Assembly: GCA_045601385.1 (NCBI GenBank)
Contig: JAZRZM010000016.1
Coordinates: 9,962-73,961, forward strand
Direction: 5' to 3'
Source: Clostridia bacterium
GTDB taxonomy: Bacteria > Bacillota > Clostridia > Christensenellales > DTU072
Length of the DNA stretch: 64,000 bases
This document shows, one piece after another, positions 1 to 27,217 of this stretch (its first letter is position 1; every line of letters begins with the position of its first letter). The notes beneath the pieces are model-generated. The model was not told the origin of the DNA, did no database searches, and saw only the letters and a program-made list of their open reading frames with translations. Position numbers and translations under genes: made by a program.

Positions 1-666
1 GTCGCGCGGTTGAACGTTATGTTGATGGTGGGACAGCCCAAATTGACGAGCGAATACATTCAGGCATCCAGCCGTGTCGGAAGATCGTTCCCGGGAGTAG
101 CATTCGTACAGTATGACGCGACAAAGAGCAGAGATCGTTCTCATTATGAGCGTTTCAGAGCATATCACGATTCGTTTTACAGATTTGTTGAACCGACAGG
201 TGCTACTCCTTTTTCTAAGCCGGCAAGAGAAAGAGCGCTTCATGCAGTTATGACTGCTTTGATTAGGCAAAAAGAAGCTTTGTCAGATGACCGCTCTGCC
301 GTATATTTCGACAAAGATGCCTTTGAGGACACTCTCAATGAGATTAGGAATTTTATTACAGGTAGAATCCGTGAGATCAATGCAAGAGATGCTGCTCAAC
401 TCAAAGACGATATTGCGGATGTGGAAGGCGAAATGTCTGAGTTTATCGAGTATTGGCAAGAAGCCGTTAACAGATCGCAAGAAGAGGGAGATACGCCTTT
501 GTGTTTCGGAAGAAAACATATGGTTGTTCCCCCCGCTTCCGGCGAACACAGGCTCTTAAAAATGTATGGCTCTTCCGGGAAAGATGATGCCAAAAACACT
601 TTGACTTCGATGAGAAATGTTGATTCTTCCGTTACGGGAAGCGTTATTATTTGGGAGGTTGAATGA
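1..666 (+). CDS. drmA: DISARM DrmA-like SF2 helicase, C-terminal part (starts upstream of window)
   Basis: Helicase motif VI-like SEYIQASSRVGR, then RDRSHYERF..YH..FY..VEP..TPFS..ARERALHA and terminal TLTSMRNVD typical of DrmA; overlaps drmB start. Confidence 0.85.
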   Translation, partial: VARLNVMLMVGQPKLTSEYIQASSRVGRSFPGVAFVQYDATKSRDRSHYERFRAYHDSFYRFVEPTGATPFSKPARERALHAVMTALIRQKEALSDDRSAVYFDKDAFEDTLNEIRNFITGRIREINARDAAQLKDDIADVEGEMSEFIEYWQEAVNRSQEEGDTPLCFGRKHMVVPPASGEHRLLKMYGSSGKDDAKNTLTSMRNVDSSVTGSVIIWEVE

Positions 667-2519
667 TGTCTGAGCAGATAAAAGAAAAAGTAGAATTGAA
701 TCATGTTACTCATTCCGTGAGAGCTGCACAGGCGGTTCTTCAATACGGCGTCGGAGCAATGGTGGACTTTCCCGACCAGACATTGGTTACCGCTGCTCCG
801 GAATATTGGAGCGGAATCGCTCGGATTTATGATGATCGTTTCGCTAAAGCTCTTGGCGTTGATTATTTTGCAATGCCGACGGCAATTTCGTATACACGCT
901 TTCCGGAATGGTATTTTTGCCCCAAATGTCGTGATTTTAAGCCATTGAAACAGTGGATATCGGAATATAAAAGAAAAGCAAAACCAAAAACACTCGAGTA
1001 TGACGGTAATATGGTTATGCATTTGCAGTGCCAGCAATGCCATCAGGATTTGGTGGTAGCTCGTATCGTTACAGTATGTGCATGCGGTCATTTAAATGAT
1101 TTTCCATGGGTCAAATGGGTTCATGCGCGAAACGTAAGTGGTTCAAAGCCTATATGCGGAAATCCGACATTGAAATTCAAAACAGGAGCATCCGGCTCCG
1201 AAGGTTTGGAGGGACTATCAATAGAATGCTCTTGCGGAGCAAAAACAACATTGAAGGATGCCTTCAACAAGGACATTTTCGAAGACTTGGATAAAAAAGA
1301 AAATACACCGGGGTTCAAATGCGAGGGCAATCATCCTTTTAAACACACGAAAGCGGGATGCGGATTATATCCAAGAACGGTCCAGCGAGGAGCATCGTCC
1401 GTTTATTTTCCGGTTACACACAGTTCTCTTGTTATTCCTCCATATGCCGATAAACTAAACACGAAAATCGAGCAAAGTAATGAATACGAGACATGCATCG
1501 GAATAATTAGTGACGAGGAAACCCAAGAAGAAAAAAACGTGTTGATTTCAAAGCGCCTCTCAAAATGGGCAGAACGAATCGCATTGGAAATAGGTGCTTT
1601 GAAAGCGGATGTCGAAAAGATATTGGAGGAAAAGTGGTTACAACCGTCCGAAGATATCGTGGATGTTACCAGTGTGAAATATCGATTCGAAGAATATATG
1701 GCGTTAACCGGAGAAATATCGACGCCTAAGGGATCACTGGGTGATTTTTCGAGAGAAGAACCCGATATAAGCGAATACGGTCTCCCACATATCAAAACCA
1801 TTTCTTTAGTCGATAAAGTTCGTGTAGTAAATGCGTTGGTTGGCTTTTCGAGAATTACTCCCGCAATGAATAAAGATGATGCCGGATTTGTCTCTGTAAA
1901 AGATTCCGGAACCAACTGGTATCCTGCATATGAAGTGCGCGGAGAGGGCATTTTCATTGAGTTTGAACAGAAAGACATTGACGATTGGATTCGGAATAAT
2001 CCGGTTGTTCTTGAGAGAGCAGAACGGCTCGCTACAAACTATCGTGAGTCTTTCATCGGGAAAAACCATCCCCGAAAAATTACTCCCAAGTTTATAATGT
2101 TACACACTCTGTCACACCTGTTGATTACCCAACTAAGTTTTGAATGCGGCTATAGCGTCGCTTCATTAAGTGAGCGCCTATACTGTTCCGAAGAATCGGA
2201 CGGAAAGCAGATGGCAGGAATATTGATTTATACTGCCAGCGGAGATTCGGAAGGTACACTTGGAGGTCTTGTGCGTCAAGGGCTCCCTGATGCTTTCCCG
2301 AGAATTTTCAAAAAGGCCATTCTATCAGCAAAAACCTGTTCAAATGATCCGGTATGTATTATGAGTCACGGCCAGGGACGAGACTCTCTTAATTTGGCAG
2401 CCTGCCACGCTTGCGCCTTGCTTCCCGAAACCTGTTGTGAAGAGCGTAATGCATTTCTGGATAGAGGTATGATCACAGGGACATTTGATAAACCGCAAAT
2501 TGGTTTTTGGAATGAATAA
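663..2519 (+). CDS. drmB: DISARM DrmB-like protein (DUF1998 domain)
   Basis: N-term VR.AQ.V..YGVGAMVD, RFPEWYFCPKC, C..GHL.DFPW, GEGIFIEF, HTLSHLLI..L...CGY..ASL.ER.Y, CSNDPVC...LAACHAC.LLPETCCE..N..LDR; RBS GGAGG at ~653. Confidence 0.9.
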   Translation: MMSEQIKEKVELNHVTHSVRAAQAVLQYGVGAMVDFPDQTLVTAAPEYWSGIARIYDDRFAKALGVDYFAMPTAISYTRFPEWYFCPKCRDFKPLKQWISEYKRKAKPKTLEYDGNMVMHLQCQQCHQDLVVARIVTVCACGHLNDFPWVKWVHARNVSGSKPICGNPTLKFKTGASGSEGLEGLSIECSCGAKTTLKDAFNKDIFEDLDKKENTPGFKCEGNHPFKHTKAGCGLYPRTVQRGASSVYFPVTHSSLVIPPYADKLNTKIEQSNEYETCIGIISDEETQEEKNVLISKRLSKWAERIALEIGALKADVEKILEEKWLQPSEDIVDVTSVKYRFEEYMALTGEISTPKGSLGDFSREEPDISEYGLPHIKTISLVDKVRVVNALVGFSRITPAMNKDDAGFVSVKDSGTNWYPAYEVRGEGIFIEFEQKDIDDWIRNNPVVLERAERLATNYRESFIGKNHPRKITPKFIMLHTLSHLLITQLSFECGYSVASLSERLYCSEESDGKQMAGILIYTASGDSEGTLGGLVRQGLPDAFPRIFKKAILSAKTCSNDPVCIMSHGQGRDSLNLAACHACALLPETCCEERNAFLDRGMITGTFDKPQIGFWNE

Positions 2520-2634
2520 AAGCGATGCACTCGTGACACCACCAGTGATGCCACTTGATTGATCAACGAACAGAATTTTTTGCAACAAATAGATAGTTTT
2601 TTCATTTTTCACGAATGAGAGGGAGAAAGCATTT

Positions 2635-3843
2635 ATGGGGCGTAGAACAAAATGTGTTTATTGCGGAAAAATAATCACGACTCGAAGCCGTGAGCATATT
2701 ATTCAAAATGCTTTGGGCGGGTTGTATGAATCTGAAGATATTTGTTGCCCCAAATGTAACAATCTTATCAGCAAATCGATTGATGTTCCTTTCGTCAAAA
2801 CTTTTAACCCGATTATTACTCGTATTGAAAACTTGACAAAAACCAACAATAAAAAATCTCATCCTATTTGCACCGGAAAAGCATTATATCAAGGTTCATT
2901 ATATGATGTTACAATCAAAAATGGAAAAATTGTTGCCTGCCCATTACTGAGTAAAAAATTAAAATGCGACATTTCAAAACTTCCGTTAGAAATAGTTGGA
3001 TATGATTTTCCAATTGACAATACGTCATTTTTTAATGGCATTTGTAAAATTGCATTTAATTATGCTCTTGAAAAAGGAATTGACGTTAACGATTTAAAGA
3101 AAGGATTACTGTTAACCGTAGAAAACAATGAAATCACAAAAATCTCCTTTAAGTATACCATTATTCCTTTTGTTCCTCTAAACCAACTTGACGAACATAT
3201 AGAATTAGGCACGGAAGTGACTCTGTACCATAATTTGATTTTGTTCAGCCAAGGTAAAAATCTTTGGTGTTATGTGGATCTGTTTAATACGTTTCAGTAT
3301 TATGTCCTTTTATCCGACACATGGAAAAATACCGTGGCTATACAAGAGTCTTATCTTCAGCTACTTCAAAAAATTGACCGTACTATTCCAGATTTATATA
3401 TACGGAAGCCCAAGCAGATTCTTACCTACGCAATGTTTTACAATATCGAACCATGTTTAGATCTGTCAGAGTTCAAAAAACGTGTTGAAGAAGCAATAAA
3501 AAGTGAGTCGCAGAAAAAAACTATTTCTGATGTCATTTCACCAAGGATGAATTTTGGTTATTTGAAACCAGAGGTAATTCAGCAAATGAGTAAAGCGGAA
3601 CTTATAAATCTACTTAAGCCATATAATTTTTACTCTGACGAAAAAGATCATTTGAGAGAAGACCGCTTTCGACAGGTTACATTACTCGGATCAGATTTTG
3701 ATTATACTTCGTATCCGTTACTGATTCAAACTTACTTGCAAAAAGGCAAAATAGATGTTCGAAAGTATACATTTGCCAAATTTGAAAAACTCAATATGTT
3801 TTTATCAAAGCTTGATAAGGTAGAGAATTCAGAAGATAAATAA
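2635..3843 (+). CDS. HNH endonuclease with long C-terminal domain of unknown function
   Basis: CVYC...SREHIIQNALGG...CPKCNN (HNH_5-like Zn/HNH motif); AT-rich gene; GGGAG RBS. Confidence 0.8.
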   Translation: MGRRTKCVYCGKIITTRSREHIIQNALGGLYESEDICCPKCNNLISKSIDVPFVKTFNPIITRIENLTKTNNKKSHPICTGKALYQGSLYDVTIKNGKIVACPLLSKKLKCDISKLPLEIVGYDFPIDNTSFFNGICKIAFNYALEKGIDVNDLKKGLLLTVENNEITKISFKYTIIPFVPLNQLDEHIELGTEVTLYHNLILFSQGKNLWCYVDLFNTFQYYVLLSDTWKNTVAIQESYLQLLQKIDRTIPDLYIRKPKQILTYAMFYNIEPCLDLSEFKKRVEEAIKSESQKKTISDVISPRMNFGYLKPEVIQQMSKAELINLLKPYNFYSDEKDHLREDRFRQVTLLGSDFDYTSYPLLIQTYLQKGKIDVRKYTFAKFEKLNMFLSKLDKVENSEDK

Positions 3844-3887
3844 CTTCCTATCATACGCAGGGTAATCTAAAATTATACTCTGTTATC

Positions 3888-3916
3888 TTGACTTCTTGCC
3901 AGCTTTATGCTATACT
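3888..3916 (+). promoter_or_regulatory. sigma-A promoter with extended -10, no downstream CDS
   Basis: TTGACT-17 bp-TATACT with TGn before -10. Confidence 0.7.
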
Positions 3917-3921
3917 GTGCA

Positions 3922-4086
3922 TAGAAAAATAAACAGGACTCGAGGGGCTTTCACCGAGGGGACGCTACCATCAGGTTTATACGATTACAGTGTTATGGAT
4001 CGGAACACACCCCTATATTATTCAAAATCTTCAATATTACCCAAAAAAGCGCACAGAACTCATTTCTGAATTCTGTGCGCTTTTTC
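3922..4086 (+). ncRNA. candidate small non-coding RNA
   Basis: Lies between a near-consensus promoter and a terminator; internal pairings CTCG/CGAG, AGGGG/CCCCT, GTGTT/AACAC; no RBS-led ORF. Confidence 0.4.
4043..4085. terminator. bidirectional intrinsic terminator
   Basis: AAAAAAGCGCACAGAA-loop-TTCTGTGCGCTTTTT. Confidence 0.8.
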
Positions 4087-4299
4087 GGCACTCTCAATCG
4101 GCTCTTTTCATAACATCCTTATGAGAAGTTGCCTTCCGGTTACCTTTTTATTCTTTCACATTCTCCCGCCGAAACAACGGACTGTCGAAAAACTGTTCCA
4201 AACTCATATCGAACCCCTCGCAGACGAACGGTAAAAAAGCCAAAAACGAACAAATTATGCAAAAACGCTTGCTAAATTAAAGATTATATGGTAAAGTAT

Positions 4300-20489: not shown

Positions 20490-21859
20490 TGGATAAAGAC
20501 GCAAAACGTACCCTGCCTATCGAACAGGATCCGCAAGTAAGAAGTCATAATTTTGACGAGGTAAACCAAGGTTATACCGCCGAAATGGCGATAGCCGAAG
20601 CAAGCCGTTGTCTGAACTGCAAAAACCCGAAATGCGTCGAAGGTTGCCCCGTCAACGTGCATATTCCCGATTTTATCGCAAAATGCGCCAAAGGCGAATT
20701 TGCCGAAGCGGCGAAAATCATCAAGGGTACCAACAACCTGCCGTCTATCTGCGGTCGCGTTTGTCCGCAAGAAGAACAATGCGAAAAAAACTGCGTCCGC
20801 CAAAAACTCGGCGGTCCCGTCGCTATCGGCGCGCTCGAACGTTTTTGCGCCGATTATGCCCTGCAAAACGGTCTGAAACCGCAAAAACCCGAAAAAACGA
20901 ACGGCCTTCGCGTCGCCATTGTCGGAAGCGGTCCCGCGGGACTGTCCTGCGCGGCGGAACTTGCCAAAGCGGGATTTGAAGTCCACGTCTTCGAGGCGTT
21001 CCATAAAGCGGGCGGCGTGCTCGTCTACGGCATACCCGAATTCCGTCTGCCGAAAACCCTCGTGCAAGCGGAAATAGACACCCTGAAAGAACTCGGCGTA
21101 CAATTCCATCTGAACGTCGTCGTCGGCAGAACCTATACGCTGGAAGAACTGACCGAAACGTACGACGCGCTGTTCCTCGGCACGGGTGCCGGTCTCCCCT
21201 CTTTTATGAAAATCAAAGGCGAAAATCTCGCCGGCGTATATGCCGCGAACGAGTATCTCACGCGCGTAAACCTGATGAAAGCCTACGAAAAAGACTCCTC
21301 CACCCCCATTGTTACCGGCAAGAACGTCATCGTCGTCGGCGGCGGCAACGTCGCTATGGACGCCGCGCGTACGGCTCTCCGTATGGGTGCGGAATCGGTC
21401 AAAATCGTCTATCGCCGCTCGATGGAAGAATTGCCCGCGCGTAAAGAAGAAGTCCACCACGCACAGGAAGAAGGCATCGAATTCGTCCTGCTAAACAACC
21501 CCGTGGAAATCCTCGGCGACAAAAAAGTAAGCGGTATGCGCGTGATTAAAATGGTACTCGGCGAACCCGACGAACGGGGCAGAAAGTCGCCCGTACCCGT
21601 ACCGGGCAGCGAATACGATATCGAATGCGACCAGGTTATCATCGCCATCGGCACCAGCCCGAATCCCCTGCTCCGAAAGTCCTGCGACAAACTCGAAGTA
21701 TCCAAACGCGGCACGATCGTCATCAGCGAAGAAGCCGAAACAAGTATCCCTGCCGTCTATGCCGGCGGCGACGCCGTCTCGGGTGCCGCTACCGTTATTC
21801 TCGCCATGGGTGCCGGCAAAAAAGCCGCCGCGTCCATTATCGAAAGATTCAAAAAATAA
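20489..21859 (+). CDS. nfnB: NfnB/SudA-type subunit (GltD-like NADPH oxidoreductase)
   Basis: EASRCLNCK.P.C..GCPV, CGRVCPQE.QCE, GSGPAG, GGGNVAMD; coupled to nfnA. Confidence 0.9.
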   Translation: MDKDAKRTLPIEQDPQVRSHNFDEVNQGYTAEMAIAEASRCLNCKNPKCVEGCPVNVHIPDFIAKCAKGEFAEAAKIIKGTNNLPSICGRVCPQEEQCEKNCVRQKLGGPVAIGALERFCADYALQNGLKPQKPEKTNGLRVAIVGSGPAGLSCAAELAKAGFEVHVFEAFHKAGGVLVYGIPEFRLPKTLVQAEIDTLKELGVQFHLNVVVGRTYTLEELTETYDALFLGTGAGLPSFMKIKGENLAGVYAANEYLTRVNLMKAYEKDSSTPIVTGKNVIVVGGGNVAMDAARTALRMGAESVKIVYRRSMEELPARKEEVHHAQEEGIEFVLLNNPVEILGDKKVSGMRVIKMVLGEPDERGRKSPVPVPGSEYDIECDQVIIAIGTSPNPLLRKSCDKLEVSKRGTIVISEEAETSIPAVYAGGDAVSGAATVILAMGAGKKAAASIIERFKK

Positions 21860-21877
21860 TTTTTCGTATCGTCAATA

Positions 21878-22007
21878 TAAAAAAAGGTTCGGATTATTTC
21901 CGAACCTTTTTTATTATCGGGAAAGCCCACCTCTTTGAAATCGATCTTTCAAAATAGCCATGAAATAAAAAAGCCGAACCCTTTTTACAGTTTGATTCGG
22001 CTTTTTT
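21878..22007. terminator. two adjacent terminator hairpins
   Basis: AAAAAAGGTTCGGA..TCCGAACCTTTTT and AAAAAAGCCGAA...TTCGGCTTTTTT. Confidence 0.7.
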
Positions 22008-22060
22008 ATAAAATAAATTTTTAAGAAAACACTAATTAGTATTCATTTATATTAGTCGGA

Positions 22061-22831
22061 TTATAAGTCCTCCTTTGCAATTAACAAATTTACATTTTTT
22101 ATATCTTTTTTTGTTATAAAAGACATGGTAATAGCAATTATCGATGCCGCTATTGCCAAATAACACCAACCGGTTATACCGCTTATATTTGCCATATACC
22201 CTATAGCACCGTTTCCGGATATATCGGCTAACAATTTTCCTATAAATTTAGCATAAACACAATGTATAATTACAAAAGAGACAAACGCAGCCACAGATTG
22301 ATTTTTAAAAGTGTTTGAACGTTCTTTCTTTGAACCGTTTTTCTTGATCTCTGTATACAATGTTATTGCATAATTTTCAAAAGAACGGCAGTTTCCTATT
22401 CCGTTAAAAAGTTTTTTTCCACTTAATGCAATAAGAATAATCGTATAAATAATTTCAGCAAACGAGAATATTGAAGATACTCCAAAATCAGATGTGTCCA
22501 TTATATCTTTAATATCGCTCAATGACATTTTCCATTCATCAAACAGCGAAAATTTCCCTGTTTGCGACTCAATAGTATATCCGCGTTCTAAATCTTCTTC
22601 TGTTAATGTCAACGAATATACAGTATACAATAAATAATCATTATCGAAATCCTCAAGAGTTCTTATCGGCACTTTTACATTTCCATCGAATTTAAAAATC
22701 GGTAAAAAAATTATCAAAATAACAATAGAGATAGACAAGACTGCCGTAACTATCTCTTTTATATTGATTTTCTTAAATTGATTCAGATATTTTTGATACC
22801 CTTTTTGATCGTTTACATTTACTGTATCCAT
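22061..22831 (-). CDS. hypothetical membrane protein (about 4 TM), AT-rich
   Basis: 256-aa ORF, AGGAG RBS, four hydrophobic segments. Confidence 0.75.
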   Translation of the reverse strand: MDTVNVNDQKGYQKYLNQFKKINIKEIVTAVLSISIVILIIFLPIFKFDGNVKVPIRTLEDFDNDYLLYTVYSLTLTEEDLERGYTIESQTGKFSLFDEWKMSLSDIKDIMDTSDFGVSSIFSFAEIIYTIILIALSGKKLFNGIGNCRSFENYAITLYTEIKKNGSKKERSNTFKNQSVAAFVSFVIIHCVYAKFIGKLLADISGNGAIGYMANISGITGWCYLAIAASIIAITMSFITKKDIKNVNLLIAKEDL

Positions 22832-22946
22832 TGTTTTTCTCCTTTTTTCTCCTTTTTCTTCATTGTATCACATATGTGAATCATTGTCAACACATTTGTG
22901 TTTTAATTATTTCATAAATGTGAATTATTGTATAGGTGGTGATAAA

Positions 22947-23258
22947 ATGGATATATTAAATAAAATATATAAATTATTGGCAGAAAAGAATTGGACACAG
23001 TATAAATTAGCAAACGAAGCGGGTTTGTCGCAGTCGGCTCTTTCCAACATGTTCAGCCGAAAAACACTTCCGTCCATAACTACTTTATCAAACATTTGTG
23101 ACGCATTCGGCATTACCCTTTCCGAATTCTTTGAAGAAGAAAATATAAATCGGGAATATACTATTGAAGAAAAACTTTTAATAAGCGACTTTCGGGAATT
23201 ATCGGATAACGAGCGGATCGCGATTCTGAACTTAACCAAACAACTTGCCCGCAAATAA
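22947..23258 (+). CDS. XRE-family HTH transcriptional regulator
   Basis: WTQYKLANEAGLSQSALSN....PSITTL..IC.AFGITLSEFF. Confidence 0.9.
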   Translation: MDILNKIYKLLAEKNWTQYKLANEAGLSQSALSNMFSRKTLPSITTLSNICDAFGITLSEFFEEENINREYTIEEKLLISDFRELSDNERIAILNLTKQLARK

Positions 23259-23295
23259 AAAAGAACCCGATTTATGGTGAATGCCGATAGGGATT
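23255..23295 (+). repeat. left arm of bipartite inverted repeat
   Basis: ATAAAAAAGAACCCG-17 bp-ATAGGGATT; inverted partner at 24339-24380. Confidence 0.7.
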
Positions 23296-23332
23296 ATGAA
23301 AGAAAGGGGCTTTTTTGTCCCTTTCGTAAAAA

Positions 23333-23563
23333 TCAGTTATTATCCGGTATAACCTTTAAATCTTCCTTTCGCACTCCAACATCTTTTTCCGTTGTGCGAT
23401 ACACACCTGCATTGTCTTGATATATTTCTCCATCAAAATAAACGAGAACGTATCCGCCATACCGCTCTTCGCCCATAATAATACCGGTATCTCCGACCTT
23501 AACGCCCGCTTCCTTATATTCGGCTCTGTCCTTTATTAGTTCTACTCTATCCAATACTTTCAT
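23333..23563 (-). CDS. small DUF4926-like protein, putative immunity/antitoxin
   Basis: MKVLDRVEL......GVKVGDTGII.......LVYF; GGAGG RBS inside the 3' end of the upstream toxin-like gene. Confidence 0.65.
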   Translation of the reverse strand: MKVLDRVELIKDRAEYKEAGVKVGDTGIIMGEERYGGYVLVYFDGEIYQDNAGVYRTTEKDVGVRKEDLKVIPDNN

Positions 23564-23564
23564 T

Positions 23565-24140
23565 TCATCCTCCATATGGTGTTGTTAAAACAAGTTCTCC
23601 ATTAGGGTAAGACATCCAACCTGCCACAAAAGACACATCTGCTCCCGTATCTTTCCTTTTCAAGTGTATCACAGTATTTATTCTTTGTCCATATCCATCC
23701 CTTTTTCCCAATTCATATTCTCCGGTCAGATAAGCCAATAATGCCTGTTTTTCTATTTCTTTCTTTAATGCATCTGAATCATGAACAGTATATCCCCATT
23801 GCTCGAACAATTTGTTTTTACCTTTGTCTTTTCCTTTATTGAAAATATAGTTGACATATTTCTCTATTGCACTTTTAGTTCGGATATCCGGTATCCCAAT
23901 ATCTTCGTAATAGCAGTGACAATGTTCGTGTAAAGGATTATCCGGGCTTTTATCCTTGACAAAGTAGCACCCGTTCATATTCAGACAGCTTGCACAGTGT
24001 TTCGGGTTTATGGTACTATTTATTACGTTCATTTTCTTTTCTGTGGCTGTGTTCGCCGGCGCAGAACCTTTGTGTATCCATTTCACCCATTGATTACTTA
24101 ACGTCTTTTTTGCAACGTTACTTGCTTCCGCTAAATTCAT
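23565..24140 (-). CDS. MuF-like Cys/His motif fused to DUF6883-like putative toxin domain
   Basis: HCASCLNMNG.YF.....P..PLHEHCHC, then KY..YIFN....GK..LF...GY...YGQR...V....W.......L.TPY; GGAGG RBS. Confidence 0.65.
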   Translation of the reverse strand: MNLAEASNVAKKTLSNQWVKWIHKGSAPANTATEKKMNVINSTINPKHCASCLNMNGCYFVKDKSPDNPLHEHCHCYYEDIGIPDIRTKSAIEKYVNYIFNKGKDKGKNKLFEQWGYTVHDSDALKKEIEKQALLAYLTGEYELGKRDGYGQRINTVIHLKRKDTGADVSFVAGWMSYPNGELVLTTPYGG

Positions 24141-24338
24141 AGCATTTACCTCCCTTGTGACAATTAGTTCGACAAGAGAAAAGACTATTCCTTATTTGGG
24201 CAAAAAAATTCTAACAAAAAAGTGTAGCCTACTACACCAAAATACTTTTGGTTGCGTAGGCGGCGGGGTTTATCCACAGACAAAAGAATAAGCGTGACAG
24301 ACTATTGCCACGCTTGATCCTTGAATTAGCTTACTGAA

Positions 24339-24380
24339 AATCCCTATGGATACTCCGATTATTCCGGGTTCTTTTTTTAT
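24339..24380 (-). repeat. right arm of bipartite inverted repeat
   Basis: AATCCCTAT-17 bp-CGGGTTCTTTTTTTAT. Confidence 0.7.
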
Positions 24381-24400
24381 AAAAGATTTTTTACGATATC

Positions 24401-25039
24401 TTATTTCGTGCCGAAGAGTCGGTCGCCTGCGTCGCCGAGACCGGGGAGAATGTAGAAGTTTTCATTCAGTTGACGGTCGAGCGTCGAGACATAGATATCG
24501 ACGTCGGGGTATGTTTCCGCGACTTTGGTCACGCCCTCGGGCGCGCCGATAATCGCCATAAACTTGATATTCTTGACGCCGCGGTTCTTCAATGCGGCGA
24601 TCGCGTCGCAAGCCGATCCGCCGGTAGCCAGCATCGGATCGAGCAGAATGGTGTACATATTTTCGATACCGTCGGGCAGTTTGCAATAGTATTCGTGCGG
24701 AAGAGCCGTTTCTTCGTCACGGTACATACCGATATGACCGACTTTTGCACCGGGGAAAATCGTGTGGACGCCGTTGACCATACCGAGTCCGGCGCGAAGA
24801 ATCGGGACGATCGCGATACTGTTGTCGGCGATCATTTTTTGTTCGCACAGTTCAAGGGGAGTTTGTACTTTGACGGTGGTCGTCGGGACGTCCTTGAACG
24901 CTTCGTACGACATAACCATCGTGATTTCTTCGATCAGTTCACGAAATTCTTTCATCGCCGTCTTCTCGTTGCGCAGAATCGCTACTTTATGATTGATCAG
25001 CGGATGATTAAAAATCGTAACGTTGGAATAATTTTTCAT
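24401..25039 (-). CDS. upp: uracil phosphoribosyltransferase
   Basis: VPILRAGLGM, LLDPMLATGGS, YILPGLGDAGDRLFGTK. Confidence 0.98.
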   Translation of the reverse strand: MKNYSNVTIFNHPLINHKVAILRNEKTAMKEFRELIEEITMVMSYEAFKDVPTTTVKVQTPLELCEQKMIADNSIAIVPILRAGLGMVNGVHTIFPGAKVGHIGMYRDEETALPHEYYCKLPDGIENMYTILLDPMLATGGSACDAIAALKNRGVKNIKFMAIIGAPEGVTKVAETYPDVDIYVSTLDRQLNENFYILPGLGDAGDRLFGTK

Positions 25040-25111
25040 TTTTATTCTCCTTAAAAATAATATTTGTCCGTTTCCCGTGCGGAAAACGGACAAATGCTTG
25101 GTTTATATCGA

Positions 25112-26611
25112 TTATTGATTATCGGCGTCGTCGAGCGTTTCCGCTTCGGAGGTTTCCGTTTCCGCGGCGGCTTCCGCCGTTTCTTTGCCGAGTTTGCTCT
25201 TTTCGATCGCGTTCAGGACGACGTTCGTGATGATACCGAGGATGAGCGCGGTAGCGATAGGCGTGATGGTGATGACCTTTTCGATGCCCTGAGCCGAAGC
25301 GGCATAAGGAATATTGATAGCAAGACCGCCGATACCGGCTACAAGGATCGCGGACACAACGAACAGGTTGTGGTTGTCGTCGAGGTTAATGTCCTTGAAC
25401 ATTCTCAAACCGCTGACAGCGATAAAGCCGTACAGGGTAAGGCATACGCCGCCCATTACGCAGGAAGGAATGGTTTGGAGCAGGCACATAACGGGGCTGA
25501 GGAAAGAAAGAACGATACACATAGAAGCCGCCATGATGATGGAGACGATGGACGCGTTCTTCGTGATAGCGACGCAACCGACCGATTCGCCGTAGGTGGT
25601 GTTCGGGCAGATACCGAAGATCGTACCGGCGATAGAGCCGACGCCGTCGCCGAGAAGGGTGCGGGTAAGTCCGGGTTCGCCGCCGACAAGGTCACGGTTG
25701 ATAACGGAACCGAGGTTCTTGTGATCGGCGATGTGTTCGGCGAAGACGACGAACGCAACGGGCAGGAAAGCGATCGCTACGGTCGCGACGCCCGCGCCGT
25801 CAAGGTTGAACGTGCCGTTCTGGATTTCTTTGATGCCTTCGATCAAAGCAAAGCGCGGATAGGTAAGGAAAGATTCGACGGTAACGTTGGTGAAGTTATC
25901 GACGAGCGGTTGCCAGTTGACGATCATAAGATAATCGCATTTTGCCGCATAACCGATAGCCGTAAAGATGGAAGCGACGACGTAGCCGGCTCCGATACCG
26001 ATCACAAAGGGGATCAGTTTCATCATCTTGAATCTCTTTTGGGAAGAGCAAATAACGACGGTAAAGAAGGTCACGAGTCCGCAGAAAAGACCGACGAGGT
26101 TGTAGCCCATAAAGGGGTTGGTCGCGGCGCCGTTTGCATACGCGAGAGAGCCGGAAGCCTTGACGATATCGCCCATCGCGCTACCTGCCAAAGAAAGACC
26201 GATCAAAGCGACCGTAGGTCCGATAACGACGGGGGGCATCAATTTGGCGATCCAAGCCGTACCGGCGAATTTGATTACGAGCGCGATAACGACGTACACG
26301 AGGCCTGCGAAGACGGAACCGACAATAATACCGCAGTATCCGTACGAAAGCGCAACAAACAGGGAGTTCAGGAATGCGAACGAACTTCCGAGAAAGACGG
26401 GGCTCTTGAACTTGGTGAAAAGCAAATAAACGAACGTACCGATACCGGCACCGAGAATCGCCGCGGGGATTTGAGCGGGCAAGCCGATGATCGTCGGGAC
26501 GGCAATCGTCGCGGCAATGATAGCCAGCAACTGTTGGAAGCCGAAAATAAATATTTTCGACAGTGACGGACGGTCTTCGACGTCGTACACAAGGTTAGGG
26601 TTTTTAGACAT
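25112..26611 (-). CDS. uraA: uracil permease (NCS2 family)
   Basis: FLGSSFAF, PPVVIGP, EHIADH, RTLLGDG, PNTTYGE..G; upstream of upp. Confidence 0.92.
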   Translation of the reverse strand: MSKNPNLVYDVEDRPSLSKIFIFGFQQLLAIIAATIAVPTIIGLPAQIPAAILGAGIGTFVYLLFTKFKSPVFLGSSFAFLNSLFVALSYGYCGIIVGSVFAGLVYVVIALVIKFAGTAWIAKLMPPVVIGPTVALIGLSLAGSAMGDIVKASGSLAYANGAATNPFMGYNLVGLFCGLVTFFTVVICSSQKRFKMMKLIPFVIGIGAGYVVASIFTAIGYAAKCDYLMIVNWQPLVDNFTNVTVESFLTYPRFALIEGIKEIQNGTFNLDGAGVATVAIAFLPVAFVVFAEHIADHKNLGSVINRDLVGGEPGLTRTLLGDGVGSIAGTIFGICPNTTYGESVGCVAITKNASIVSIIMAASMCIVLSFLSPVMCLLQTIPSCVMGGVCLTLYGFIAVSGLRMFKDINLDDNHNLFVVSAILVAGIGGLAINIPYAASAQGIEKVITITPIATALILGIITNVVLNAIEKSKLGKETAEAAAETETSEAETLDDADNQ

Positions 26612-26644
26612 TTTTTCCTCCTGTTTTGCCTTTCGGCGTTTTTT

Positions 26645-26683
26645 TTATAAAAAAAAATGCTTTCCCGAAAAAGAAAGCATTTA
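26645..26683 (-). terminator. attenuator terminator in the uraA-upp leader
   Basis: Minus strand AAATGCTTTC-loop-GAAAGCATTTTTTTTT between promoter and uraA RBS. Confidence 0.8.
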
Positions 26684-26776
26684 TTTTTTTGAAAAGAAAA
26701 ATCCGGAAAAGAGAAACACCGAGCCGCCCTCGCTTTGAACAGTGATTTTGGAACTTGTCGGAACTTTCTGTTTCAT
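26681..26776 (-). CDS. putative 31-aa leader peptide MKQKVPTSSKITVQSEGGSVFLFSGFFFSKK
   Basis: AAAGGTGG RBS right after the predicted TSS; U-rich 3' third; stop codon overlaps the 5' arm of the terminator. Confidence 0.55.
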   Translation of the reverse strand: MKQKVPTSSKITVQSEGGSVFLFSGFFFSKK

Positions 26777-26794
26777 CTTAATCCACCTTTTTGT

Positions 26795-26823
26795 ATTATA
26801 CTTTTGTAAAAAAACATTGTCAA
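26795..26823 (-). promoter_or_regulatory. consensus sigma-A promoter of uraA-upp
   Basis: TTGACA-17 bp-TATAAT. Confidence 0.85.
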
Positions 26824-26842
26824 GCAAAAAAATACAAAATAG

Positions 26843-27217
26843 TCATTTTTTTTCACCCGTCAATATATACGTCATAATGACGTTGACTATATAGTCTGTT
26901 TCCTCTTCCGAAAGTGCCCTGCCCTGCGGTATTTTATGCCACTTATACAGGCAAGAGCGACAGCAAGTCGCGGTCGCGTGTTGTGCGACAAACACCGGGT
27001 GTCCGCGCATAGGCGTTTGCTTTCCGTCGTTTTTCGGGAAAGCCGGCGCAAGGCGCGCGCGGATAAAGTCGTACGCGTGATTACGGATCGTCTCCTCCCC
27101 TTTTTGCTCGACATACTGCCTGTCTTTTTCTTTCAAAACAAACTTTCTGCGAAAATCCGATTTTTGCAAAGCGGCGAGCACGGATTCGATTTTTTCTTGC
27201 TCCATTTTTTCTTCCAA
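26843..27217 (-). CDS. DUF4186 protein
   Basis: NDGKQTPMRGHPVFVAQHATATCCRSCL.KWH.I..GR.L. Confidence 0.9.
   Translation of the reverse strand: MEEKMEQEKIESVLAALQKSDFRRKFVLKEKDRQYVEQKGEETIRNHAYDFIRARLAPAFPKNDGKQTPMRGHPVFVAQHATATCCRSCLYKWHKIPQGRALSEEETDYIVNVIMTYILTGEKK

Follow-up and report, generated by a model that had tools for sequence, protein, structure and literature searches.

A terminator-splitting toxin-immunity cassette between XRE and upp genes, probably moved in trans by a Cp36-class recombinase in gut Clostridia

The window, the whole 64,000-nucleotide stretch of DNA analysed here, belongs to an assembly of 2.17 Mb in 62 contigs (G000) and raises the question of what kind of element has placed a small toxin-immunity pair between two convergent genes, an XRE gene and upp. 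A sequence-only reading had seen bipartite inverted repeats around the pair and had taken it for a non-autonomous mobile or invertible cassette, possibly inserted into a terminator loop and moved by an undescribed system. The outer and inner blocks were found where that reading had placed them (23255-23295 on the left and 24339-24380 on the right) with a spacer of 17 nt on both sides; they enclose only two ORFs, of 191 and 80 aa on the minus strand, and no recombinase or transposase ORF adjoins them. The outer blocks have 13 nt in common, the right one with one additional A/T, and the inner blocks 9 nt, and the block pair is the longest inverted repeat within window positions 21000-27000. Genome-wide, 188 bipartite inverted pairs were counted, a number that carries no chance estimate, and the 10 listed are one long repeat on contig C9. 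The strict bipartite pattern returned just these two sites in G000, but the inner box and the core dinucleotide next to it recur elsewhere. A chance origin is disfavoured because inner block and core recur at both ends of all nine two-ended copies described below.

A search with the toxin protein revealed another copy in G000, on contig C5, as well as copies from 4 of 24 sampled same-genus genomes and two distant matches, and further searches added more. Every one of the nine copies with two ends, which come from four genomes and two other records, has TA/TA cores; among elements of any cargo, the two cores of an element match (TA, AA or GA) in 13 of 14. The copies lie at unrelated loci, their flanks being unrelated except for two short matches, and the seven full copies measure 1,087-1,103 bp in a common layout. 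In two pairs, copies from different loci are 96% identical, and the two G000 copies are 78% identical to each other. Over part of its length the C5 copy has 94% identity with a G016 copy, vs 84% for the adjoining fba DNA, a contrast that, on sequence identities, suggests horizontal transfer. Recurrence at nine unrelated loci, with no mobility gene inside the cassette, bears out the idea of a non-autonomous mobile cassette with recombinase-type ends. For these counts, matches in G037 and G352 were excluded as chance (they lie inside ORFs), as were those in G010:C16, G012:C74, G016:C3 and G016:C5, and L150-L152, loci already counted, were not counted twice.

The same copies bear on whether each one could be an immobile, decayed remnant of a larger recombinase element, a CIME, in which case the cassette would not move as a unit. 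CIMEs, by the definition in the accessible text of PMC5704250, keep attL and attR and lack integration and transfer genes, as the cassette does; truncated copies are common, no helper is resident, and at G069:C4 the same ends enclose an element of 2.6 kb that contains a recombinase fragment. However, the seven full copies repeat one layout at unrelated loci, the 96%-identical pairs occupy different sites, and decay is disfavoured because independent events would not converge on one unit; we therefore regard this explanation as improbable. The cassette also differs from CIMEs in keeping an oriT-like site, in being a constant unit at unrelated sites and in having no adjacent element, and its recurrence as such a unit would favour movement in trans over passive accretion. 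Several homologues lack one or both of the ends, which counts against the proposed model of movement; the toxin pair is cargo and not the mobility unit, because more distant and some close homologues are without the ends. Toxin pairs at L075:3700-4900 and L077:1-800 (65-69%) have none of these ends and lie beside repeats that resemble tRNA 3' ends, suggesting a second carrier system.

The element itself spans 23273-24361 (1,089 bp), with a GC content of 38.7% vs 47.7% for the genome. Each end consists of the core dinucleotide TA, 12 nt and then ATAGGGATT, an arrangement fixed across the aligned copies. The left copy of TA, the predicted crossover, is at 23273..23274 and the right copy, placed by the end alignment, at 24360..24361. 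The left end (23275..23295, plus strand) comprises the 12-nt arm and the box (23287-23295) and is a predicted recombinase half-site by its likeness to the Cp36 attP geometry; the right end (24339..24359, minus strand) comprises the box (24339-24347) and its 12-nt arm and was likewise defined by the end alignment. The 12 nt beside the core differ between the two ends, and the terminal inverted repeats do not abut the duplication. The 17-nt spacer is thus resolved into 3 nt of a host terminator loop, the 2-nt TA core and 12 nt of element end; the spacers are equal on both sides because the insertion hit the middle of the loop, the other 14 nt being set by the element.

The outer blocks, read earlier as part of a bipartite element end, change in sequence at every locus and are host DNA. 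At this locus they are the arms of a bidirectional terminator: positions 23255..23272 (plus strand) hold the XRE-side arm, an A-tract with GAACCCG, and 3 nt of loop, overlap the XRE stop codon and belong to the target, not to the element, while 24362..24380 (minus strand) hold 3 nt of loop and the upp-side arm, CGGGTTC with a T-tract, as judged from sequence and refolding. Both the terminator between XRE and upp and the insertion into its loop, as they had been proposed, were upheld by refolding, since the rejoined arms restore a hairpin of -17.6 kcal/mol, more stable than that of any of 24 mismatched pairings. Across 13 elements, flanks joined at the core gave an A-tract/T-tract hairpin of -13 kcal/mol or lower in 10 cases and no strong hairpin in the other 3, a test that is partly circular, as the partners in G003 and G069 were chosen through an A-tract filter and the C36/C47 pair was assumed from its matching arms. 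The clean version, free of flank-guided pairing, used the seven protein-found copies, the window excluded, and gave an exact permutation p of 0.0004 over 5,040 pairings. L072, with a left flank of 11 nt, was omitted from the folding tests; its positions 1115-1130 have a 16-nt terminator arm in common with window positions 24365-24380, at an unrelated site with different neighbouring genes.

The search for an empty site succeeded at another locus: G001:C290 keeps intact, downstream of the same gene, the terminator that is split in G016:C6. For the window's own site, no joint across the cassette was seen in the reads of four of 20 runs, whose cover is patchy and absent over 23010-23462; one contig of run X1 spans the upp-side junction, and the three nearest upp orthologues (89% identity) all have intact terminators of other sequence and no cassette. 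Downstream of fba, three relatives have intact hairpins and one has a different 280-bp element. The latter, L207 (G010:C30, after fba), is an ORF-less element of ~280 bp with the same ends, an AA core and an oriT-like site; it splits the fba terminator at the position that a toxin cassette occupies in G000. Next to the cassette, the region 21900-23272 with the membrane-protein and XRE genes has 31% GC and is almost uncovered in the four runs, and it is possibly a separate variable insert.

Which recombinase could act on such ends? Once the ends are circularised, the cassette boxes would lie 12 + 2 + 12 apart, which is the geometry of the Cp36 attP. In the accessible part of Durrant et al. (2022; PMC10083194), this attP consists of a 9-bp box, 12 nt, AA, 12 nt and ATAGGGATT, the last being an exact match on one side. 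In the rows available from the same source, the listed Cp36 attB reads, to our eyes, as a hairpin with an A tract on one side and a T tract on the other, and so does that of cluster11564, whose attP row has the same 9-bp box and 12-nt geometry, whereas the attP rows of Enc9 and Pc01 are without the box. Cp36 is placed there in a DUF4368-rich clade that includes TndX, and the accessible portion of a 2026 paper terms the Cp36 core non-conserved. The cassette shares with this clade the attP geometry, a 2-bp core, a target of A-tract and T-tract and many unrelated sites (PMC10083194, as far as accessible), and it differs in that it encodes no recombinase: there are two ORFs only and no DUF4368 recombinase among them. 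It is a satellite of the Cp36-class family and not an autonomous member. The offset between box and tract does not agree with the ZD shift of 5 bp reported for LI integrase.

A complete element with the same ends is present in the same genus. At G003:C8, a 14.5-kb element with both ends and an AA core splits a terminator and carries Mob_Pre and an intact recombinase of 556 aa (Resolvase-Recombinase-Zn ribbon-DUF4368), the likeness of which to Cp36 was judged by eye. DUF4368 is present in 18 of 81 family genomes, and a box with at most one mismatch lies just 3' of 7 of 22 DUF4368 loci, compared with 3 of the 22 when the control strand is read, which is weak when taken alone. G000 has no intact cognate helper: the gene of its sole DUF4368 recombinase is broken into two frames, and the end beside this gene has a GA core and a box that differs at 2 of 9 bases. 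A search of G016, the genome with most copies, gave no match to DUF4368. Because the G000 gene is broken and G016 is without DUF4368, the helper would be transient or unassembled. The suggestion of an undescribed mobilisation system was not borne out in that the ends match Cp36-class DUF4368 large serine recombinases. In the openly accessible literature, no account was found that has this clade targeting terminators or that describes cassettes of this kind, and in PMC10083194 the words terminator, hairpin and palindrom* are absent from the 8 supplement files and terminator from the main text, within the parts available.

The same recombinase family may, alternatively, read only the A and T tracts, with insertions surviving mainly in intergenic terminators. 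This reading competes with the insertion step of our model alone, and we hold it to be a serious possibility of somewhat less than even weight. The targets conserve the tracts only and not the stems: 25 of 26 ends have A at -13 and 24 have it at -12, and stem positions are not conserved. The Cp36 target motif is likewise A-rich/AA/T-rich over more than 2,000 human integration sites (PMC10083194, accessible part), two toxin copies lie between A/T tracts without a hairpin, and of the 54 TA sites in G000 that show the A/T-tract motif, 35 fall within predicted coding sequence, from which insertions would be lost by purging. Against it, hairpins form at 7 of these 54 sites and at 6 of the 19 intergenic ones, compared with 5 of 7 unselected targets (p 0.036), a modest excess, and the fba terminator was struck by two different elements in two species.

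We then considered how a cassette without a relaxase might pass between cells. On the minus strand, 24219..24261 is a predicted MOB_V oriT of the pMV158 type with three overlapping inverted repeats and a nick placed by analogy between 24228 and 24227, a feature that the sequence-only reading had missed; 17 of 19 bases are identical to the site upstream of Mob_Pre at G003:C8. The site folds with a z of -2.9 and has the layout of the pMV158 oriT. Within 3 mismatches G000 holds four oriT-like sites, three of which belong to cassettes bounded by these ends, vs one for the reversed control, and a further oriT-like site lies near a contig end (G000:C16:90829). Of 81 family genomes, 15 contain the motif (control 0), and in G003 and G006 it lies upstream of Mob_Pre. 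At 18 of 29 independently found oriT loci an inward-facing box lies within 300 nt, vs 3 with a wrongly oriented one, and the distance from box to oriT is mostly 22-23 or 90-93 nt. Among the toxin cassettes the site deviates at 4-5 of 19 positions in four copies, and two copies are unmatched. Mob_Pre was not found in any of the four cassette-bearing assemblies (84-96% complete, G000 among them). The likeness to the pMV158 oriT extends to the three overlapping inverted repeats and, by eye, to 14 of 19 nick-region bases, and the differences are the nick bases, GTAGG/C vs GTGTG/T, and the lack of a mob gene after the site in the cassette (PMC3105389 and PMC5090054, as available). The cassette likely passes between cells through the relaxase of another element acting at this predicted oriT.

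Features such as the subterminal repeats, the repeated TA and the structured leader without coding sequence are reminiscent of the IS110/IS1111 or the IS630/MITE families. It is very improbable, and largely refuted, that the ends belong to an IS110/IS1111-type RNA-guided system or to an IS630/MITE-type system with TA duplication, even though a published abstract, in the part available, mentions subterminal repeats of IS1111. The repeats are set back from the ends, and the core dinucleotide differs among elements (TA, AA, GA) while its two copies in an element agree. No DEDD_Tnp_IS110 was found in G000, identical ends flank serine-recombinase elements, and the leader, which has no Rfam family match, forms a conserved hairpin with almost no covariation that matches the oriT. 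Still less credible is the other half of the original proposal, an invertible cassette that acts as a switch by flipping between inverted recombination sites. The boxes are inverted and TA is palindromic, such that antiparallel synapsis is formally possible, but inverted boxes are the expected attL and attR of a symmetric attP, and flipping a cassette with its own leader and terminators would change little. There was no sign of inversion, and no strand-switch joint appeared in the four runs, at low and patchy cover. A circle junction gave four unrelated phage matches in viral contigs, none in metagenome contigs and none in the four read runs; the end pattern had two matches in viral contigs, neither within a recognisable element.

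Among known mobile elements, the Tn4451/Tn4453 IMEs, with a serine integrase and MobV, resemble the cassette in the identical 2-bp core, the low target specificity and the MobV-type mobilisation (PMC5704250, accessible text), and G003:C8 is itself a Tn4451-type element of this composition; the cassette, in contrast, measures 1.09 kb and is without integrase or relaxase. Hitchers of the iOriT kind are integrated and have an oriT with no relaxase or mating pore (bioRxiv 10.64898/2026.01.13.699239, as accessible), and by sequence this is the content of the cassette, in which an oriT-like site is present and relaxase and mating pore are absent. In the available part of that study of six nosocomial species, an integrase lies within 2 kb in 92% of att-delimited islands, serine recombinases make up <1%, and the elements exceed 4 kb with one 2-kb exception, unlike the cassette with its serine-type ends, 1.09 kb and no integrase. 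It would seem to work like a satellite of Tn4451/Cp36-type elements and to resemble CIMEs and iOriT in content only.

We consider it quite probable that 23273-24361 is a terminator-splitting cassette, with a Cp36-class (DUF4368) recombinase as the likely agent of its excision and insertion in trans and the predicted MOB_V oriT as its likely route of transfer. The boundaries, the core repeat, the nine loci, the split hairpin flanks, the presence of the same ends on an element with recombinase and MobV, and the lack of recombinase and relaxase genes were observed. A visiting recombinase would circularise the cassette and bring the two boxes 26 bp apart around the core, and a MobV relaxase together with a helper mating pore would transfer the circle. 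Insertion would then occur at a matching core with an A-tract ~11-16 bp to the left and a T-tract ~11-16 bp to the right, which bidirectional terminators supply. Hairpins of the cassette would restore termination for both neighbours, and the predicted RNase-immunity pair would favour retention by addiction or serve defence.

Hairpins lie inside both ends. The one at 23302..23325 (plus strand) faces the XRE gene and closes the operon as a likely replacement terminator; the region 23290-23345 folds on this strand at -17.4 kcal/mol with a z of -3.4, vs -1.7 for the minus strand, and the terminator scan did not call the hairpin. At 24280..24315 (minus strand), the scan found an intrinsic-terminator-like hairpin with a T tail facing the upp transcript (z -5.1), which is kept in seven aligned copies. 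Rfam gave no family-level match, only sub-threshold terminator-like ones. The two hairpins would replace the broken terminator, and insertion would be near neutral because they would restore termination.

The cargo is a predicted BECR RNase with its immunity protein. The 191-aa toxin (23565..24140, minus strand) is assigned to DUF6883/BECR-Tox3 by profile and structure match: the DUF6883 match has an E of 2e-5 and 25.2 bits, below the cut-off of 27, and 34 of 37 aligned family members match at E <= 0.05. The model has a pLDDT of 93.5, and residues 88-191 match the CdiA toxin 6cp9_A (Z 10.6, rmsd 2.4, 99 aligned); Foldseek gave nothing at E <= 0.001, its best rows being CdiA toxins, and neither PADLOC nor PHROG gave a match. 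The Cys/His-rich N-terminal part may, by its motif, be of MuF origin, for which no Pfam or PHROG match gave support. The 80-aa predicted immunity protein (23333..23575, minus strand), likely 76 aa from a start at Met5, is DUF4926-like by family profile and complex model; it has no Pfam match itself, and 19 of 50 aligned members of its family match DUF4926 weakly (best E 0.0014). The toxin domain with the partner gave a complex score of 0.61 vs 0.00 for the best control, with a partner pLDDT of at least 81 and runs agreeing in at least 84% of contacts, against a roughly applicable mark that 116 of 157 solved and 2 of 215 mismatched pairs reach; the model supports a putative binding of the partner to the toxin domain. 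In the accessible part of bioRxiv 10.64898/2026.08.28.747851, DUF6883 is BECR-Tox3, often fused to MuF and with a DUF4926 immunity gene downstream. The same order of a DUF6883-like domain and a DUF4926-like gene, and a fold nearest to CdiA toxin domains, are found here, and the difference from the forms described in that part is a stand-alone 191-aa toxin on a mobile cassette outside a prophage.

The intact toxin copies have dN/dS values of 0.11-0.23 over 15 non-independent pairs and are thus under purifying selection. In other copies the toxin is broken and the partner kept, through a 2-bp deletion in contigs of runs X1 and X2 (window position 24071) or an early stop in G016:C7; toxins with internal deletions occur in G016:C6 and G001:C192 (the broken-copy loci listed are L073, L070, L069 and L064), and in G016:C1 it is the partner that is frameshifted. 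Frequent toxin loss with the partner kept would be expected of an addiction-type pair.

In a wider sense, gut Clostridia may host doubly parasitic mini-elements of ~0.3-1.5 kb, with an att-oriT-cargo-att layout, that borrow a Cp36-class recombinase and a MobV relaxase, treat bidirectional terminators as safe harbours throughout the genome, provide termination anew and carry exchangeable cargoes from species to species, here an RNase toxin-immunity pair, the intrinsic terminator being the natural target of Cp36; we find the case for this generalisation evenly balanced. It would assign an orphan cassette to a named and experimentally used recombinase class with the bidirectional terminator as a plausible natural target, which is relevant to the prediction of off-target sites and to safe-harbour integration in bacteria. 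A further implication is a layer of very small elements without a mobility gene, missed by integrase- or relaxase-based surveys, that would carry toxin-immunity and other cargo genes between gut Clostridia.

Other cargoes were seen between the same ends. In G000, C36 (11063 to the end) and C47 (1-1510) together form a cassette with an AA core and a split terminator, a pairing that spans a contig break, and it carries an ArsP_1 permease, a thioredoxin-like ORF and an oriT-like site at 1 mismatch. A BRO-N protein (L183), a maltose acetyltransferase-like protein (L182) and a HipA-like kinase with a recombinase fragment (L187) were found likewise, as were oriT elements of 324 bp (L224) and 1,460 bp (L230). 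L080 (G012:C74) holds a long CRISPR array with 36-nt repeats. In the window, a second serine-recombinase-type end at 4114-4136, with a GA/TC core and a box different at 2 of 9 bases, closes an island (1-4100) with DrmB (DISARM-like) encoded at 663-2516. The likely partner of this end lies after the split-frame DUF4368 recombinase at G000:C17:273-2040, a pairing that also spans a contig break, and the rejoined flanks fold at -10.3 kcal/mol.
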